Shown here piece after piece: positions 1,347 to 33,653 of a DNA stretch of 33,653 nucleotides (within the stretch, counting starts at the first letter, position 1; the number at the start of each line of letters is the position of its first letter). Location of the stretch: positions 1 through 33,653 of the forward strand of contig CAYSJK010000001.1 of assembly GCA_964431375.1 (NCBI GenBank). The letters are read 5' to 3'. Origin of the DNA: an uncultured Pirellulales bacterium. Its GTDB lineage: Bacteria > Planctomycetota > Phycisphaerae > Sedimentisphaerales > Anaerobacaceae. The position numbers and the translations under genes are program-made. The notes under the pieces were generated by a model. It was given only the letters and a program-made list of their open reading frames with translations, had not been told where the DNA came from and ran no database searches.

Positions 1347-3602
1347 CTAAGCTGTGACGGCAGCAGGTTGTACTTTCTGATATTCTTGGTAAGACCTGAA
1401 TTGCTCATCGAAGTAGCCGCCCTTCATAGCCCTCGCAGCAAGAAGCACGCAGCCAGCAATTCGGGCACCTACTTCTCTTAGTTGAGCAATGGTTCTTTGA
1501 GCAGCGCCTCTTCTTGTAGCAGTGGCGTTGAAGACCAGGACTGTTGTATCAGCAAGTTTTGCCAGCACCTTGCTATCACTTACCAGCAGCACAGGTGGGC
1601 TATCAATTATAATATAATCGTAATTTTTACGTTGTTCAGCAAGTAGTTCTTCCATCTGCGCACTGTCGAGCAAATCAACTGGATTGGAAGGCAACGGCCC
1701 TGAATCAATTATGTCCAATCTATCGATACCGCTGGGCCTTATGGCATCTTGGACTTTACACTGTCTCATTAACGCACTACTTAATCCAAAATCAAAACCC
1801 TCAGCTTCATAGCCAAGGCCCGCCTTTGGGAATAGCGTTTGTAAACTCGGACGTCTGAAGTTGGCATCTATTAGCAGTACCTTTTTGTTCTCGCCAACAA
1901 AGGTTACCGCAAGATTGACAGACACAGTTGTTTTTCCATCCCCTGCTGAACCGCTGCTAACAAGCAATACTTTAGACTCAGCAGGACTGGACAGCTTCAA
2001 ACGAGTCCGAAGCTGCTTATAGGATTCACTTATAAGGGAATAAGGTGCCTTGTGAACGATATGACAGGGATCAATTCCACGAACCTGGTCATCTTCGCTT
2101 GTATCGGGAATCATGCTCAAAAGCGGAATACGCAGATATTTGCCTATATCCCTCGGCGTACGCAGAAGGTCATTGAGCACCTCGATGAGGAAGGAAAATC
2201 CGACGCCAAATAAAAAGCCCAATATTGTCCCAACCGGGAAATGTACCCACCACTTTCGAGAAGACACCATTTCCAACGGTACCGGAGCTAAGCCAACACG
2301 CTGGACCTTAGGTGTCCTTGGATCATCGTGTATTATTTTTAATTTCTCAATCTGCTCCTTGATTGAATCAAGCATCTCGATTCTTTCATCTCTTATTTTC
2401 ATCCGCTGTCCAAATTGCACACGGGCTAAATCAAGGTCTCTTTTTTTCGCAGCTATCTCCGCTCGCATCTTTTCCATTGCTGCCAACCTTTCTTGCATCA
2501 CAATCAAAGTGTCCTGTCCGTTTGCGAGATTCGCCCGCCGCGTCAGTTCTGCTATTTCTTGCTTCCTGAGTCGTCTTTTTTCTCTGATTTCGTCTATTAG
2601 CTCTTGCGTTTGGAGCACAACTCTGTGGTTTTCACCGAACTTTGTAAGTCTGCCGGCTAATTGAGCTTCTGCAAATGCAAGCTCCCGAGTTAGCGAAATC
2701 GTAACAGAGTCATTCTCCACTATACTTTCAATCTGCTCGGTAATAGGTCCTGTCGCTAATTCCTCAAGATTTGCAATACTAGCTTGAATTTGTTTTATTG
2801 TCAGAGCAAGCTCGTTTTCTTTAACGCTTAAATCATCCAGCATTAACTCAATTGTATGCCGGAAATAACGCCCTGCAGGCTGTTCGAGGTCGGTTATGCC
2901 CCATGCCGTACGAACTTCACCGAGTCCCCTTTCAGCTGCATCTAATTCCCTTTGAACCCGAGCTCTTTGGTCGTCCAGCTTTGTCATACTCTCAGCAATT
3001 TCTGCTCTCTTTGTACTTCCCTGCGAAGCAACAAACAAATCGACCATCTCATTAACTATAAGTGCGGCCTCCCCAGGCTTGCGACAGGACATCGATACTT
3101 CAATGTAACCAGCATCTCTATGGGCGAAAGCACCAAGATGGTTGTCCAAATCCTTAATGCGTTTTGCCTCATCAGCTTTTCGCGCGAACCACATGGTTTG
3201 CCTAACCTTATCTCTGCCAAGCAATTGTTGCAGGTTACTTTGCTGTTTTATGAGACTAGCCATTGACAAACGGTGACCGTATTGAAGATCCTTTTGCACC
3301 TGAACTGAAGTAATGGTCATAGGGTCTGTCTCTACAGGCGGCAGGACTTCAATGTAGGTTGATGCAGTATATTGTGGGAAATATTGCTTTAAGAGATACC
3401 AGGTTGAACCGCCAATTATAAATCCTAAGCCGGTCAGGACAACGATGAGTAAAACGTGCCGACGCAATATTCCAAAGACTTCTTTCGGCGTTAAGCCGGC
3501 AGCCACAGGTGGTCTCAGCACGGTTTGTCCTCCGTGGGGAGTCCCTGGGACTGCCATCCTATTTATTGCCACTGGTCTTTCTTCTGCCATTTTAATCTCC
3601 AA
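1347..3602 (-). CDS. Polysaccharide chain-length determinant fused to BY-type tyrosine autokinase (Wzc/GumC/EpsF-EpsG-like)
   Basis: 751 aa. Two TM helices bracket a long coiled-coil region. The C-terminal P-loop domain has Walker A GDGKTT, Walker A' LLIDANFRRP, Walker B DYIIIDSPP and a Tyr-containing tail GGYFDEQFRSYQEYQ. Confidence 0.85.
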   Translation of the reverse strand: MEIKMAEERPVAINRMAVPGTPHGGQTVLRPPVAAGLTPKEVFGILRRHVLLIVVLTGLGFIIGGSTWYLLKQYFPQYTASTYIEVLPPVETDPMTITSVQVQKDLQYGHRLSMASLIKQQSNLQQLLGRDKVRQTMWFARKADEAKRIKDLDNHLGAFAHRDAGYIEVSMSCRKPGEAALIVNEMVDLFVASQGSTKRAEIAESMTKLDDQRARVQRELDAAERGLGEVRTAWGITDLEQPAGRYFRHTIELMLDDLSVKENELALTIKQIQASIANLEELATGPITEQIESIVENDSVTISLTRELAFAEAQLAGRLTKFGENHRVVLQTQELIDEIREKRRLRKQEIAELTRRANLANGQDTLIVMQERLAAMEKMRAEIAAKKRDLDLARVQFGQRMKIRDERIEMLDSIKEQIEKLKIIHDDPRTPKVQRVGLAPVPLEMVSSRKWWVHFPVGTILGFLFGVGFSFLIEVLNDLLRTPRDIGKYLRIPLLSMIPDTSEDDQVRGIDPCHIVHKAPYSLISESYKQLRTRLKLSSPAESKVLLVSSGSAGDGKTTVSVNLAVTFVGENKKVLLIDANFRRPSLQTLFPKAGLGYEAEGFDFGLSSALMRQCKVQDAIRPSGIDRLDIIDSGPLPSNPVDLLDSAQMEELLAEQRKNYDYIIIDSPPVLLVSDSKVLAKLADTTVLVFNATATRRGAAQRTIAQLREVGARIAGCVLLAARAMKGGYFDEQFRSYQEYQKVQPAAVTA

Positions 3603-3681
3603 TCAGAATTTACTGTTTACTAACTAATAGCAAACACTGTATTGCATATATATTTTTTCGCGTGATATATTATGCAACATA

Positions 3682-6600
3682 TCACTGCGAGAGGCGTTCA
3701 ATAGCTTCTTTTATCCTTTCTCTTACTCTTTCCGACAATTTATCAGCTCCTATTTCATAGGCTTGCTTATATGCGCTAAGGGCCTGCTCATTTGCTCCAA
3801 GTTTCTCTTTTATCAAACCTAAATGCTCATATACCTCCGCAGGTGCAAGGATTCCACTCTGCTCATACTGTTGTAAGGCAGAAGCCGTAAACTCGGCAGC
3901 TTGGGAAAATTCACCATTTTTATACAGCACATAAGCATAAGTATCCAAAAAGCTTGGATTATTTGGGCTTGCCTCGACTACCTTTTTAATATACCGAAGA
4001 GCATCAGAGAGCCTTTCGTTGTTTTCAGCAAGCATATACGCTAAATTATTTAGAACATTGATATTATTCGGCATTTTAGCTAATAAACTTTCGTAATCTG
4101 CGATACCCTGTTTAAGATAATTATTATCGGAAGTTTTTTCGAAGGCCAGCGTTAAAACCTCCACTTTTTTCACTGTATAATTGACCCCACGGACAGAATC
4201 TGACCCGGCTATTTCGATGCATCTGTTAATATAATTTACAGCCTCATCGTAGTCGGCCTTAATATTGGTAAGATTAAACATGGTCCAGTTAGCAGAAAGC
4301 GAATCAGGATTAGTTACAAGCTTTTCCGTGCAATACCTTGAAACCTCTTCAGGTCCAAGCAGTAAGAACATTTTCAGCAAAATATCAGAGGCTAACGTGT
4401 CATTTATCTCAGCTTTATCAACAGCTTTTCGGCAATATTCTATGGCGACTTTTTCGTCGCCGAGCTTTAGCTTTGCTTCAGCCATTCTATAAAAAGCTAT
4501 AGGTGCGAGTGGACCATCAATATGTTTGCTGCTTTCTTCAAGAACCTTATCCAGCTTCCTTGGTTGCCAGTTACTTGTGTTTAAGGTCCCTGCATTTAAA
4601 ACAAGCGCCTGCAGATATCCATCAAACGCTGTTACATATTCCATATCTAGTTCTTCACTTTCCATATCCTGTCCGGAATGTTCTTGTTGTTTGCGTAGAT
4701 ATGCCTCTTTGTATAATTGCTCACCTTTGTCGAAATAACTCTCAGCTATAGCAAATGCCCCTGCAAGATTATACCAGGACACATTATCAGGAAACTTCTC
4801 CAGGGTATCATCATATAATTTTACCAGTTCTTCTTTTCTGCCAAGTCTTATATAAAGCCGTTGAAGCAGCTCTCTGGCCTCTATAGTAACGCCAGGTAAG
4901 TCAACAATATTTTTAAGTTCGACTATAGCGTCATCTTCGCGACCAGTCTGCAGATAAGCTCTGGCTAAGCTTAGTCTGATGTCGGGCTCATCAGATAGTA
5001 ATTTACTCTTTTTGAGGTCATTAATTGCCTCGTCGAAATTTGCCACCAGAAGATTGATTTGGCCTCTTAGCTGCCAAGCTATCGCATTGTTCTGGTCGCT
5101 CTGAAGAATTCGATTTATCAACTCCATTGCCTTTTCCAGTTGACCCTGTCTCATTAGCAACCACGCCTCAAGCAGCATCGCTCTGGGTTCGTCTGGATGA
5201 TTTTCTTTGAAACCTTGTAATTTGTATTCAGCTTCCTTTATAAGCCCAACTTTAAGGTAAGTCTGAATTTGAACAAGGTGGTTTTCTACATTGTCTTGTA
5301 GTGATAAAAGTTCCTCAGAATATCTCTTTGCGGCCTCTACATCGCGAGTCCTTTCCGCAATGTATAAAAGGCCCTTAACTACACTTTCGTTTTGTGGATC
5401 ACTTTTGTATAACTGCCCTAAAGCATCCTCAGCCTTTTCAAACTGCCCGCTCTTAATATAATGGTCCCACAGCAATACCTGTTCTTCTGATGCTTGCAAT
5501 ATCTTCTCTGCCTCTGCGTCCATCCCCCTGGCGCGATAGTATTCTGCATAGCTATGGAGCAATTCTACGTCATGTGGATTTATTTCCTTGGCTTGCTCAA
5601 AAGACGCAGCTGCAGCATTAAAGAACGATTCCCTCTGCCTCGCATCCGTTTCTTCAAAGGCCAATTTCGTTAATAGTCGTCCAAGATGTATAGCGTTCCG
5701 AACGCCAGGCTTGATTTTTTGTATATTTTGCCGAATTACTATCGCTCTCAACGGCTCTGTATCGCTTATATAATCAGCGTAAAAGTCAAGCAACTGTAGT
5801 TCGTTTGGATTTAATAGCATTGCTCTGTCCAAAGCAATCCTGGTCTCGGTTATTTGCTCGGGCGATATATTATCGCCAAGCTCTTGATTGTGACGATACA
5901 ATGTAACCGCCAATACTTTTGCTATAGTTCCATCCAGAGGATTCAGAGATACGGCTTTTTGAATATCCTCAATAGATGCGTGCTCATTCCCAAGTTTATC
6001 ATTGACATTGCCCCGTATCATATAAGCACGTGAAAATATGGGCCTTTGCTTTATACATTCATCGAGTTTTGCTAATGCGTCTTTATAATCCTCTTTAGCT
6101 ATAGCAAGACGAGCTTCAAAAAGCTGGCCTTGACATCTATCTAAATTTTCACTTTGAGCTGTTTCTACGATTTGCTCTGCCAGTTCCCAATCTTTCAACC
6201 TAACTGCTATATCTAAAAGATAGTCTGCAGCAATTGAATGCATATTAGTTTCTTCCACTCGCTTAAAAACTGACCTGACAGTAGTGCTCTTCTGTGGATT
6301 TTTTATTTTAAGGGCCTTTTTGAATTCAGTAGCAGCTTTTTCCAGTTCGTTATTGCTTCGATAAAATAGTCCAAGGCTGACAGCCCGGAGAGCAGGGTCA
6401 GAGATATTCATTATAACATGCTCTTGTATTTCTTTACGCCTTTGCTGTGAAACCTCTCCAGGCTTTGGTTCCGAAAGTATTTGCTTGAAGACCTTAATTG
6501 CGATATTATCAGGATGATACTGCAGAAATCGGTCAACTAAAGCCTTAGCCTCGCTTATCTGACCATGCGTTATATAATATTCGCAAAGACCGTTAACTGT

Positions 6601-8664: not shown

Positions 8665-8920
8665 AAATTTTTCCCTTCCCCGGTCCGCCGGGACAAAAAA
8701 CCGCAATTATAAAGACCTTTTTTCCCCATATTTTTGCTCATGATTTATATATCCGGGCGTTATTTTGTAACGTATTGTAGGACCCAATTTTTCCGACGTT
8801 TTGCCCGGTGAGACCTGACAGAATAAGAAACATCCTAAATGCCCTATATTAGGCTCCCACAGGATAAGGGGGTATTTGGAGGTCATGTTATATGCTCTAA
8901 ATCCGCCAAAATACATCAAT

Positions 8921-30889: not shown

Positions 30890-30914
30890 TGTAGGGTGGG
30901 GCTTGCCCCACCAA
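30890..30914. repeat. REP-like hairpin element TGTAGGGTGGGGCTTGCCCCACCAA (copy 1)
   Basis: The stem pairs GGTGGGG with CCCCACC around the loop CTTG. It lies immediately after the aroA TAA. There is no T-tract, so it is a poor intrinsic terminator. Confidence 0.6.
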
Positions 30915-31124
30915 TTCCACTGCAGGGGGTTTCCTTTTGTATTTTGAAAATTCGAATTTCTTTGCCTGTCCCCGAATGTTTTGGTCGGGGATCTCGGATT
31001 TAGGATTTCGTGCTTCGGATTTATTCGATTTATCGAAATCCCCTTTGCATTTTCCGCCACATAAACTATAATTACTAACCGTACCAGCGGAGACCGACAA
31101 CCGAGTCTAATTATTCGTAAATAA

Positions 31125-31152
31125 AATGTAGGGTGGGCTTGTAGCCCACCAA
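31125..31152. repeat. REP-like hairpin element AATGTAGGGTGGGCTTGTAGCCCACCAA (copy 2)
   Basis: It shares the AATGTAGGGTGGG and CCCACCAA flanks with copy 1. The stem pairs GGTGGGCT with AGCCCACC. It is in direct orientation, 235 nt from copy 1. Confidence 0.6.
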
Positions 31153-31218
31153 AATATAAATTTCTAACAAAAATTGTCGTATAGCTCTGCCCCTGGCCCC
31201 AAGGGCACAGGTATTATT

Positions 31219-32019
31219 ATGTTATCCATGATAGCAAAATATCCATTATTTAATTTAGTTTCAGACATTACTTGTCCCTTTGAGGTTGGAGAAGGAATAT
31301 ATATCTCTACCAATGACATCGATGTTGAAGCTATTGAATCATACAACATGTCAACCGAGGACAAGGAACATTTATTAGAACCATCCTTCTGTTTGGTAAT
31401 TGATAAAAACAAACACAAACCTGAAGTTGCTTCCATAACATTCATAATATCTGCTAGGCTGATTAAGAGGTCGAAAGTATTTATACGTTATAGAGTTGAT
31501 AATTATAGCGAGTTAATAAAAATACGTGATGATTATCCCTTTGTCACATCTTCAGAAGCAACAGAAATGATTACTCCTTCAGAATTTCAGCGATTATGCA
31601 AATTATTTTCGGCATTGAATTTCTTTAAAAAGATCAATACCAGAACATCAAATTCAGTTTACTTCCTGAGCATGGCCTATAGATCGAGAAAATGGATGGA
31701 ATCTTTGTTATTTCTTGTTTGTGCCCTTGAAACCTTAACTTCAGCATCTGAACGGGAAAGAAATGTCAAGAGTAAGTTTACCGATAGGATTCATCATTTT
31801 ATTGGATACAACAAAGATGAGCTAGCATTGATTTATAATATCAGGTCTGAACTTGTTCATGGAAGATATCAATGGGAATCCGGAGAGAAAAATCTTCGAT
31901 TGAATCGTATTGCTGAAGAGGCATGTAGAAAAGTATTTGGAAAAATTCTCCTTGAAACAAACTATAGTGAATTATTCAAAGATGATAATAAAAGACTCGA
32001 TATGTTTGAAAATGGATAA
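31219..32019 (+). CDS. HEPN-like protein (Rx4H motif), otherwise uncharacterised
   Basis: The ORF runs 31174(TTG)-32019, with the first ATG at 31219. The C-terminal helical region has LLFLVCALETLTS, then ~45 aa later IYNIRSELVHGRY (R-x4-H, codons 31843-31860). The N-terminal ~140 aa have no motif I recognise. AT-rich codon usage. Confidence 0.5.
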   Translation: MLSMIAKYPLFNLVSDITCPFEVGEGIYISTNDIDVEAIESYNMSTEDKEHLLEPSFCLVIDKNKHKPEVASITFIISARLIKRSKVFIRYRVDNYSELIKIRDDYPFVTSSEATEMITPSEFQRLCKLFSALNFFKKINTRTSNSVYFLSMAYRSRKWMESLLFLVCALETLTSASERERNVKSKFTDRIHHFIGYNKDELALIYNIRSELVHGRYQWESGEKNLRLNRIAEEACRKVFGKILLETNYSELFKDDNKRLDMFENG

Positions 32020-32147
32020 CATCCAGATAGAGAGGGACGGCCTGATGGCTGTCGGTTATCCGCGGCGTTAGGCACAATAATAGCTTATGGGAAATTCCAT
32101 GTAAGATATACAATAGAACTGCTTTGAATAATCAGAAATGGAGATAA

Positions 32148-32738
32148 ATGAAGCAATTTATAGCAATACTATTACTTATTCCTGTTATTCTTTTTGTTTT
32201 TTTTGCATTTAGAGAATCAAAAAAACAAAACAAGGAAGATAAAATTGTTATAGCAGAAGAAAAAAAAGAAACGGGGAATAGATTCTTTCAAGTGGGATTA
32301 ATAATAGAAGCAGAAAATGAGACCCTAAAAGAACAAATCAAGGTTTCTTTTAGTAAAGATTTAGAGAAACTTACTGATGTCGATGTTGAAGTAAATGGAA
32401 ATAAAGAAATCTTCGTAGGAAGAAATTTATTTATTATACGTTTTAGTATTGAAGAAATTAAACCAACTAATGAATTATTGTCAACTGTAATATTTACTAA
32501 AATGGGTAATGGTAGTGATTTAGATTTTTCTCTTTCCGATTACAGAGATTCGGAACAACTTGATACGTTACTATCTGAAAAGGAGTTCTATATTGATTAT
32601 TGTGTTAGATATTTTGACATAAATACTATAGATGTTTTTACCAAGAACATATCTGAAGTCTTAAATGAAAGTATATTAGAACCCAAGAGAGAAGACTTTA
32701 GGAGAGCAATAGAAATACTCAGAAAAAGAATGAAATAA
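32148..32738 (+). CDS. Membrane-anchored hypothetical protein (single N-terminal TM helix)
   Basis: GGAG lies 4 nt upstream of the ATG. MKQFIAILLLIPVILFVFFAF is followed by a Lys/Glu-rich soluble region. No recognisable domain. Very AT-rich. Confidence 0.5.
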   Translation: MKQFIAILLLIPVILFVFFAFRESKKQNKEDKIVIAEEKKETGNRFFQVGLIIEAENETLKEQIKVSFSKDLEKLTDVDVEVNGNKEIFVGRNLFIIRFSIEEIKPTNELLSTVIFTKMGNGSDLDFSLSDYRDSEQLDTLLSEKEFYIDYCVRYFDINTIDVFTKNISEVLNESILEPKREDFRRAIEILRKRMK

Positions 32739-32766
32739 AGAAAAAGCGAATTATTAAATCAAAACC

Positions 32767-32808
32767 AAAAAAAATTCTCCCCAGCTTCGCATAACTCTAA
32801 GAGAATTA
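32767..32808 (-). terminator. Terminator-like hairpin with U8 tail on the minus strand
   Basis: AATTCTC (32774-32780) pairs with GAGAATT (32802-32808). The 21-nt loop is large. On the minus strand the stem is followed directly by TTTTTTTT (32775-32768). It could also end the plus-strand islet genes, but weakly. Confidence 0.3.
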
Positions 32809-32859
32809 AGGGTCTCCGTGACCTTTTTGAGTTATAATGGTCAACGCAAGATTGTAATC

Positions 32860-32915
32860 CCTGCGGGAGCAGGGACAGAAATCGAATTCGGTTAGCCCCG
32901 TGTTTCACGCGGGGA
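32860..32915 (+). other. Two adjacent GC hairpins (CCCTGC-GGGA-GCAGGG and CCCCGTG-TTTCA-CGCGGGG)
   Basis: Read directly. The second, with its flanks (GGTTAGCCCCGTGTTTCACGCGGGGATTAAACG), resembles a type I-E CRISPR repeat in shape and 3' handle. It is solitary. Confidence 0.4.
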
Positions 32916-33295
32916 TTAAACGCTTTGTAAAAACAGAAATCAATCATTAAAGAGATACCCTTATGCAACGGTTTGTCCGTAAACCTCGATGTCTTTGTGC
33001 ACGATTGTCTATAACCAATTCTCTAATCCTCCAATTTTACGAACTTTTAACTTTAGTCATTTTAGCTCACTTTTAACTCCTCCCTCTGTGGCTTATATTT
33101 TTGAATTTTGGACATTTGAATTTTGATATTGTTTCGAATTTCGAGCTTAGCATTTCGAGTTTATACGAGATACGCTTCACGCTTCATCCATCCACATTCT
33201 TGTTTTCAGAAAGAAACCGTGGGGACGAGGTACGAATAAAATCCGTGGTTAGAATACAGTCAGCTTAAAAAGTAAGTCAGCTTATCTGACTTTGC

Positions 33296-33534
33296 CTGCC
33301 CTGCGTAGTTGAACAACGAAGCGGGGTGGTCGAAGGCAACATTCTATGACAAAGCTGGCTTTGGGAGTAGAATTTGCCGAGAACACCAAGCTGACTGAAT
33401 TCCTCTGTGTTCTCTGCTTGTCCCGCCAAAGCCTTGGCGACGGCGGATGAGCTCTCCATAAGGAGTCCCAAGGACTGTGGTTAAAATTCTTTGTGCTGGA
33501 GCCTGTCCCGCCATAGCTTTAGCGAAGGCGGATG
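33296..33534. repeat. Three members of a structured repeat family (outer GC stem / 3x3 internal loop / short inner stem)
   Basis: The units are at 33299-33326 (CCCTGC GTA GTTG AA CAAC GAA GCGGGG), 33419-33449 and 33504-33534. The last two are 31-nt copies differing at 4 positions. Confidence 0.6.
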
Positions 33535-33551
33535 CCTTCGTGGCTGAATAT

Positions 33552-33576
33552 CTCTGTGTACTCTGTGTTCTCTGTG
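33552..33576. repeat. 9-nt-period tandem CTCTGTG(nn) x3; a shorter copy at 33403-33416
   Basis: CTCTGTG occurs at 33552, 33561 and 33570. CTCTGTGTTCTCTG occurs at 33403-33416 next to the preceding hairpin unit. Confidence 0.6.
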
Positions 33577-33609
33577 GCAAAAAAAAATGATAAAAAAGCC
33601 GATTTCTGC

Positions 33610-33637
33610 TTGAAAAACCAGCCATATCTGGTATAAT
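33610..33637 (+). promoter_or_regulatory. Sigma70-like promoter TTGAAA-N16-TATAAT pointing out of the window
   Basis: The -35 is at 33610-33615 and the -10 at 33632-33637. No gene start is visible before the window ends. Confidence 0.4.
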
Positions 33638-33653
33638 ACCGAATGTGTTCAGG

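Follow-up and report, generated by a model that had tools for sequence, protein, structure and literature searches.

An AT-rich islet of two co-directional genes interrupts the housekeeping genes of an uncultured Pirellulales bacterium, and the question that it raises is whether the two genes work together or are simply neighbours. The islet lies at positions 31153-32760 of a 33,653-nt stretch of DNA (contig CAYSJK010000001.1 of GenBank assembly GCA_964431375.1; hereafter the window) and holds two open reading frames on the plus strand, ORF1 (31228-32019) and ORF2 (32148-32738). The initial annotation had taken the pair for an undescribed toxin/defence module, with ORF1 as a HEPN-type RNase effector and ORF2 as its membrane-anchored partner. 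Both reading frames are present, but we arrive at another arrangement: ORF1 is very probably the cargo of a single-gene integron cassette that now lies stranded, with no integron around it, where 3.4 kb of inserted DNA separates aroA from aroC on a probable Planctomycetota chromosome.

The ORF1 cassette between aroA and aroC

The abrupt shift in composition claimed for the islet was borne out, its GC content being 0.317 compared to 0.450 +/- 0.029 in 1,608-nt windows elsewhere in the window (minimum 0.394), and GC at third codon positions (GC3) is 0.28 in ORF1 and 0.18 in ORF2, against 0.35-0.56 in the 17 other genes of the window. Comparison with related genomes supports the view of the islet as foreign DNA. 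The distance between aroA and aroC is only 29 nt in the relative L044, and in the closest relative, L043, a single spermine-synthase/TPR gene separates them, whereas 3,441 nt with a GC content of 0.369 lie between the two genes in this genome (L040). Since this AT-rich gap has no counterpart of its size in the relatives, we regard the islet as an insertion into a housekeeping locus at a spot that varies, the aroA-aroC junction (30890-33653 of the window, continued in L040:2197-5637). The names given to the closest EPSP synthases point to a Sedimentisphaerales-like member of the Planctomycetota as the probable host. Variants of the population that lack the islet were also sought, but every contig with an identical aroA carries it (four contigs, each with ORF1 and ORF2 together).

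Integron integrases move cassettes through recombination at the G|TT of the attC site, and both ends of the ORF1 unit have the corresponding features. The 5' cassette junction, G|TTATCC (31221-31227, plus strand), is an R'-type core recognized from the enrichment of flanking motifs and from the borders of homology, and the first six nucleotides of the cassette, TTATCC, are complementary to its own R'' box, GGATAA at 32014-32019, a pairing that also flanks homologues in 11 loci. At the other end, the attC site (32014-32073, plus strand) consists of an R'' box GGATAAC (32014-32020) that overlaps the stop codon of ORF1 and an R' box GTTAGGC (32067-32073). RNAalifold predicted no structure from the MAFFT alignment of attC sites, so the structure of the attC model was set by hand, with 67.6% of cells paired in it compared to at most 47% in slid controls. 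A first covariance model built from 17 attC sites of other loci matched 32014-32073 at 28.6 bits (E = 5e-4), and a second one, built from 28 sites with the window excluded and run with filters off, did so at 32.4 bits (E = 1.9e-5). This is the sole significant match to the attC model in the 33.6-kb window, and it lies on the strand of the gene; with the first model, all 35 of 35 matches across 28 sources fell on the strand of the homologue, and new intergenic sites were also found in arrays.

The limits of homology tell the same story, as BLASTN alignments to L037, L039, L038, L001 and L013 begin at 31207-31228 and end at 32001-32035, coinciding with the ends of the cassette. Among 30 non-redundant loci, 25 could be assessed for the 5' motif, and 14 of these have GTTATC no more than 45 nt upstream of the homologue, compared to 1.4% by chance, and GATAAC occurs at the stop in 16 of 30, compared to 0.6% by chance; both end motifs are found in 11 loci. 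The homologues sit in runs of compact, co-directional and otherwise unrelated reading frames with spacers of 50-140 nt that contain repeats, and their flanks follow a common pattern, with G|TTATC[C/A] a few nucleotides before the start, [G/C/A/T]GATAAC at or just after the stop and an imperfect palindrome ending in GTTRRRY. One of these arrays is on L008, where the homologue is the third of at least six cassettes and where, over four successive cassettes, the first 6 nt pair with the R'' box of the same cassette (TTAGGG/CCCTAAC, TTATCC/GGATAAC, TTGGGT/ACCCAAC and TTAAGT/ACTTAAC). The array is preceded by an integrase-like gene fragment on the opposite strand that encodes a divergent Phage_int_SAM_4 domain (E = 2.8e-20) and is truncated by a DDE transposase; judged from its sequence, the fragment would fit an integron integrase gene disrupted by an insertion sequence. 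Cassette arrays with an ORF1 homologue also occur in L015, L016, L024, L025 and L010. We conclude that cassette arrays in several phyla carry this gene, flanked by these same end motifs.

The window copy has several features in common with integron cassettes, and with the lone attC sites and integrase-free attC clusters that IntegronFinder classes as SALIN and CALIN. Its single reading frame is compact and has hardly any 5' leader, the G|TTRRRY at its 5' junction is complementary to the R'' box of the same cassette, and a 60-nt attC on the gene strand follows the stop codon directly. The gene also recurs in arrays of several cassettes, of which one has an integrase gene. Unlike an integron, it has no integrase, no attI and a single detectable attC, and it lies between two shikimate-pathway genes, which marks it as a stranded cassette and not a working integron. 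The initial annotation had reported that mobility genes are absent, and this held for integrases and transposases in the window, but it overlooked the signature of mobility in the attC site and the cassette junctions.

Several further features of the homologous loci were noted. In L037 (around 2770-2800) and L039 (around 820-850), which hold the two closest homologues of ORF1, a near-consensus promoter (TTGACA, 17 nt, TAAAAT/TAAATT) lies just upstream of the old cassette boundary, and the window copy is without it. In L008, the region 3442-5999 contains an integrase-like gene split by the DDE transposase gene, with a possible C-terminal fragment at 3442-3741, and in L015 an 82-nt unit is present in two perfect tandem copies (5053-5216) at the end of the contig that carries the array. 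The interiors of attC sites resemble those of their neighbours: the attC interior after the homologue in L008 (7940-8007) is 94% identical to that of an unrelated neighbouring cassette (8796-8862), and in L016 (1671-5191) the attC sites share AACAACTCAA across the homologue and unrelated neighbouring cassettes. The GGATAAC/TTATCC core, unlike these interiors, tracks the ORF1 gene across arrays and phyla, which suggests that attC interiors are homogenized or replaced at the level of the array. A core bound to the gene combined with an interior matched to the array, if real, would bear on how attC sites are made or homogenized.

ORF2 and the surroundings of the cassette

ORF2 (32148-32738, plus strand) encodes an orphan protein of 196 residues with one N-terminal transmembrane helix, and the features first reported for it, a GGAG ribosome-binding sequence and an N-terminal membrane helix, are both present, the GGAG lying 5 nt before the ATG and the helix being hydrophobic. 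Its only homologue among 5.8 billion proteins is P0087, which is 90% identical and encoded on a 791-bp contig, and its ratio of nonsynonymous to synonymous substitution rates (dN/dS) is 0.52, calculated on only 29 differences. If ORF2 were the partner of ORF1, it should accompany the homologues of ORF1, yet the genes found 3' of those in L037-L039 (84-89% identity) and in L001 show no relation to ORF2 or among themselves, and no gene cluster adjoins ORF1 homologues in common across independent loci among the 30 examined. Moreover, homology of L036 to the window covers 32003-32755 only, and the break with respect to other contigs falls exactly between ORF1 and ORF2. In L036, the only other contig with ORF2, a conserved attC (26.4 bits) precedes the gene, and of ORF1 some 27 nt at the 3' end are left, with other sequence upstream (L036:1-110); ORF1 appears to have been deleted or replaced there. 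ORF2 is hence missing beside close homologues of ORF1 and found elsewhere without an intact ORF1. We conclude with high confidence that ORF2 is not the partner of ORF1.

Whether ORF2 is itself a second cassette is evenly balanced. Its unit would start directly after the G|TTAGGC of the ORF1 attC, and a palindrome lies 50 nt past its stop codon, a candidate degenerate attC (32789-32837, plus strand; GCATAAC...GTTATAA) with a 7-bp stem, ATAACTC/GAGTTAT, in which GCATAAC agrees at 6 of 7 positions with the complement expected from a cassette that begins with TTAGGC. This palindrome folds weakly (z = -1.65) and does not score as an attC, the model missing it even at E <= 10.

The hairpins that had been reported on either side of the islet do fold, at 31132-31150, 32858-32875 and 32896-32914, but the label of the first as a repetitive extragenic palindromic (REP)-like element was rejected: no other copy exists in the window, so the hairpin is not repeated as a REP element would be. 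It is an 8-bp stable hairpin (-9.3 kcal/mol, z = -3.4) with a terminator-like match on the minus strand, probably a terminator-like element of the aroA-distal spacer, outside the cassette. The other two hairpins (32858-32914; z = -2.3 and z = -2.65, respectively) close the AT-rich stretch. Inverted repeats of the kind expected at transposon ends were also sought on both sides of the islet, and the pairs found were at chance level only. One promoter-like site for ORF1, TTTGCA-17-TATAAT, is present at 31044-31072, and such sites are no commoner than in shuffled sequence. Further along the window, at 33392-33574, two GC-rich 34-nt copies of a dispersed repeat with CTCTGTGTTCTCTG motifs lie 85 nt apart, and positions 1-55 of the window match L040:5252-5306 at 91%; the contig ends coincide with dispersed repeats.

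The ORF1 protein and its HEPN-like domain

ORF1 encodes a protein of 263 residues with two domains, and the AlphaFold2 model of the whole protein has a predicted local distance difference test score (pLDDT) of 93 (95.7 for residues 117-266). The longest reading frame listed for it runs from 31174 to 32019, and the initial annotation had placed the start at 31219; the reading frame is real, but the start conserved in the family is the ATG at 31228 (MIAKYPLF), which opens an M-x-x-x-Y-P-L motif in 38 aligned homologues, whereas the ATG at 31219 spans the cassette junction. The ATG at 31219 straddles the G|TT at which recombination occurs, and the ATG at 31228 sits 1 nt past TTATCC, with no Shine-Dalgarno sequence inside the cassette.

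A word-indexed search retrieved 85 homologous proteins of about 263 residues, none with a Pfam domain and none with an informative name, and an exhaustive profile search with the ORF1 family found 376 representative clusters (50% identity clustering) at E <= 1e-3. The family occurs in at least five phyla, in metagenome bins assigned to Planctomycetota, Omnitrophota, Desulfosarcinaceae, Bacteroidota, Pirellulales and Desulfobia. With dN/dS of 0.20-0.31 in comparison with five relatives, ORF1 is under purifying selection. Neither the ORF1 nor the ORF2 protein has a significant match in Pfam, PADLOC, NCBIfam, PHROGs or the PDB sequences, a PADLOC match to PDC-S17 (E = 0.005, 14 bits) having been judged noise, and the ORF1 family is unannotated in every library searched. 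The N-terminal domain (31228-31566, plus strand), about 115 residues long and beta-rich according to the secondary structure of the AlphaFold2 model, is likewise without a match in these libraries, and we propose that it is a sensor or regulatory domain. More distant relatives of ORF1 keep the C-terminal domain behind other, longer N-terminal regions.

The C-terminal domain (31567-32016, plus strand) is helical and HEPN-like. The exact R-x4-H motif claimed for it is present as IRSELVHGRY, in which the codons of R209 (31843-31845) and H214 (31858-31860) delimit the R-S-x-L-V-H motif (31843-31860), and the acidic residue E171 is encoded at 31729-31731. Across 38 homologues with 46-86% identity, E171, T172, R209, S210, L212, H214, G215 and R216 are invariant, and across 110 distant relatives with 14-26% identity, H214 is still invariant while E171, Y206, R209, S210 and G215 are conserved in at least 90%. 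Because its residues are invariant across homologues, the motif lies far beyond chance. HEPN domains have been described as carrying an acidic residue in helix 2, the motif where helix 3 terminates and a variable insert between helices 2 and 3 (Anantharaman et al., 2013; PMC3710099). The AlphaFold2 model places helices at residues 141-155, 159-174 (with E171), 183-195 (inserted), 199-213 (containing R209 to V213) and 222-245, with H214 opening the loop after helix 199-213, a predicted helix order and motif position that would match this description.

When the domain model was compared by Foldseek, the HEPN protein 2hsb came first (probability 0.98, TM-scores 0.49/0.56, root-mean-square deviation 4.5 A over 123 columns, E = 0.38), followed by 4nqf and 7ae6. 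The whole protein also had a HEPN entry as its top match, and its HEPN matches were 2hsb, the Csm6 structures 6tug and 5yjc, 1wol and 7ae6, all of them weak, and nothing in the PDB or BFVD reached E <= 1e-3. HEPN proteins thus dominate the meaningful structural matches, though none has a significant E-value. At the sequence level, the best PDB profile match of the superfamily profile is Ec4ApeA (9hxm; E = 0.078, sub-threshold), in a collinear alignment that pairs ALEaL with ALESL and LYdiRSdIVHG with LYLLRNTIVHN, and the Pfam family HEPN_Apea gives a sub-threshold match (E = 0.045) in 2 of the 110 relatives. The HEPN assignment made at first agrees with the motif and the helix order, the top structural match, 2hsb, is not significant, and we consider it likely, based on the predicted model, that the C-terminal domain has the HEPN RNase fold. 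The Pfam family MauJ (methylamine utilisation protein J) weakly matches 3 of the 110 relatives, including P0229 (residues 298-344) and P0209 (residues 293-333), with a best E-value of 1.6e-5; MauJ may be an unrecognized HEPN-like protein.

One of the known systems close to ORF1 is ApeA, a single-protein HEPN anti-phage system whose oligomers are ring-shaped and which, when deoxydinucleotides activate it, cuts the anticodon loops of tRNA (10.64898/2026.01.26.701840). Both are encoded by one gene, with an N-terminal beta-rich region and a C-terminal HEPN domain (a probable one in ORF1), ApeA is the best PDB sequence match of ORF1, and the ALExL and LYxxR[SN]xIVH motifs of ApeA are collinear with those of the ORF1 family. 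In contrast, the match is not significant and ORF1 has no PADLOC match to ApeA, its N-terminal domain has about 115 residues compared to about 300 in ApeA_NTD1, and its insert between helices 2 and 3 has about 30 residues compared to about 110 in ApeA. Membership in ApeA would require both ApeA_NTD1 and HEPN_Apea above threshold, and in this family HEPN_Apea was found only below threshold and only in distant relatives.

HEPN genes carried as integron cassettes are already known: an 'integron cassette HEPN' family (PDB 3jrt) has been described (PMC3710099), the chromosomal integron of Vibrio cholerae contains the HEPN cassettes Esos and Taranis (10.1101/2024.07.02.601686) and an AbiU2-type integron cassette has been reported (10.64898/2026.03.17.712381). 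These cassettes confer phage resistance or are predicted RNase toxins (PMC3710099; 10.1101/2024.07.02.601686; 10.64898/2026.03.17.712381), and, like ORF1, each consists of one HEPN-type gene in cassette form. ORF1 differs from them in its N-terminal domain and in its distribution, as its family comes from metagenome bins of Planctomycetota, Omnitrophota, Desulfobacterota and Bacteroidota and not from Vibrio; no sequence link to them was detected, and 3jrt is not among the PDB sequence matches or the top 50 Foldseek matches. With HEPN-MNT and other two-gene HEPN modules, ORF1 shares the R-x4-H helical domain, and its structure weakly resembles that of the HEPN toxin 7ae6, but it has no conserved adjacent antitoxin, and the protein, with an extra domain of its own, is double the size of such toxins.

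Possible roles of ORF1

On balance, we favour the reading of ORF1 as a self-contained sensor-plus-HEPN effector on a stranded integron cassette. The cassette holds one gene, a second would not fit into it, and by analogy with ApeA and AbiJ-type proteins the effector would act without a partner gene. Two HEPN domains would pair to build a composite R-x4-H active site, the N-terminal domain would keep the enzyme inactive until a cue from infection or stress, and the triggered enzyme would then cleave tRNA or other RNA and so stop growth. Experiments have shown that many single-gene defence systems, some of them of the HEPN type, reside in integron cassettes. A role for ORF1 as a defence or abortive-infection RNase is nonetheless a tentative proposal, a little short of an even prospect and drawn from analogy. 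A defence-island neighbourhood is seen for some homologues only, those beside type I restriction-modification and AbiEi/AbiEii genes, while most lie in cassette arrays or among housekeeping genes. The non-cassette homologues of L002 (1-5980) and L004 (1-5700 and 8290-9751) adjoin type I/IIG restriction-modification genes, a SEC-C protein and an AbiEi/AbiEii pair, surroundings that are like those of a defence island.

A number of results count against the favoured reading, both in its integron part and in its HEPN part. No integrase or transposase was found in the window or in the 3 kb past its end, and the other attC candidates in the window, at 31161-31227, 32789-32837 and 32843-32897, fold weakly and are not detected by the attC model. 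By the definitions of IntegronFinder, the locus is at most a lone attC, neither an integron nor an attC cluster, as the window contains neither an integrase with attI nor at least two nearby attC sites. The closest homologues of ORF1, in L037-L039 (84-89% identity), keep GGATAAC and have no detectable attC; these copies look like former cassettes that have been domesticated. No curated HEPN family in Pfam, PADLOC, NCBIfam or the PDB sequences passes its threshold, the Foldseek E-values are 0.38 or worse, and, since most homologues lie in arrays or among housekeeping genes, the defence role rests on analogy.

Two alternatives concern how the islet is built. The original proposal, that ORF1 and ORF2 form one toxin/defence module with the membrane protein as sensor, anchor or immunity partner of the HEPN effector, draws on the adjacency, shared direction and AT-richness of the two genes, on their joint presence in all four contigs of the population and on the good ribosome-binding site of ORF2 itself. 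We consider it very improbable in view of the single homologue of ORF2 compared to at least 85 of ORF1, the unrelated genes that follow ORF1 homologues of 84-89% identity, the L036 contig in which ORF2 follows the attC and no more than some 27 nt of ORF1, from its 3' end, are present, and the attC itself, a mark of a cassette boundary, between the two genes. That the palindrome after ORF1 is a transcription terminator only, the islet having arrived by a non-integron route, would explain why the window has no integrase and no second detectable attC, and the fold z-score of the palindrome (32014-32073) is only -2.1; yet no T-run follows it, the site fits an attC model trained elsewhere, and homologues in true arrays share the GGATAAC and TTATCC ends, which leaves this explanation with hardly any credibility.

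The other two alternatives accept the cassette and concern what the protein does. The C-terminal domain might be a non-catalytic helical bundle, MauJ-like for example, with its conserved arginine and histidine forming a binding surface, as every HEPN match is below significance and three distant relatives match MauJ (best E = 1.6e-5) better than any HEPN model. Conservation is, however, centred exactly on the E, R, S and H at the positions of the HEPN active site, HEPN is the top structural match both for the whole protein and for the isolated domain, and MauJ itself is maybe HEPN-like; we therefore hold a non-catalytic bundle to be quite unlikely. The main alternative to a defence role is dormancy or addiction, in which the HEPN RNase of ORF1 would serve the mobile element as a stress-dormancy or addiction-type toxin that stabilizes arrays; alternatively, it would be an RNA-processing enzyme outside conflict. 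Dormancy-inducing RNases have been proposed in integron cassettes (PMC3710099), a proposal that such a role would fit, and several homologues sit among housekeeping genes; toxin-antitoxin cassettes, recognized by eye from translations, occur in the same arrays (a VapBC-like pair in L024, a RelE-like pair in L021 and an MNT-like gene in L010). The lack of a conserved antitoxin partner speaks against this role, and the sensor-plus-HEPN architecture and the restriction-modification/Abi neighbourhoods suit defence better, so that we regard it as unlikely.

If the favoured reading of ORF1 as a self-contained effector is carried to the family as a whole, ORF1 could found a widespread, unannotated family of single-protein immune RNases in which a stripped-down ApeA-like HEPN domain is joined to a small, new sensor at the N terminus and which spread between phyla as a cassette, a speculative possibility in our estimation. 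Integron cassettes beyond Vibrio and clinical plasmids are a largely unexplored store of compact defence genes, and ORF1 is a 263-residue, single-gene candidate with clear predicted catalytic residues. The copy stranded between aroA and aroC exemplifies how cassette DNA can persist without an integron, here in a Planctomycetota-like genome, and the locus is a caution that a seeming two-gene islet may be two independent cassettes, which matters for defence predictions based on guilt by association.

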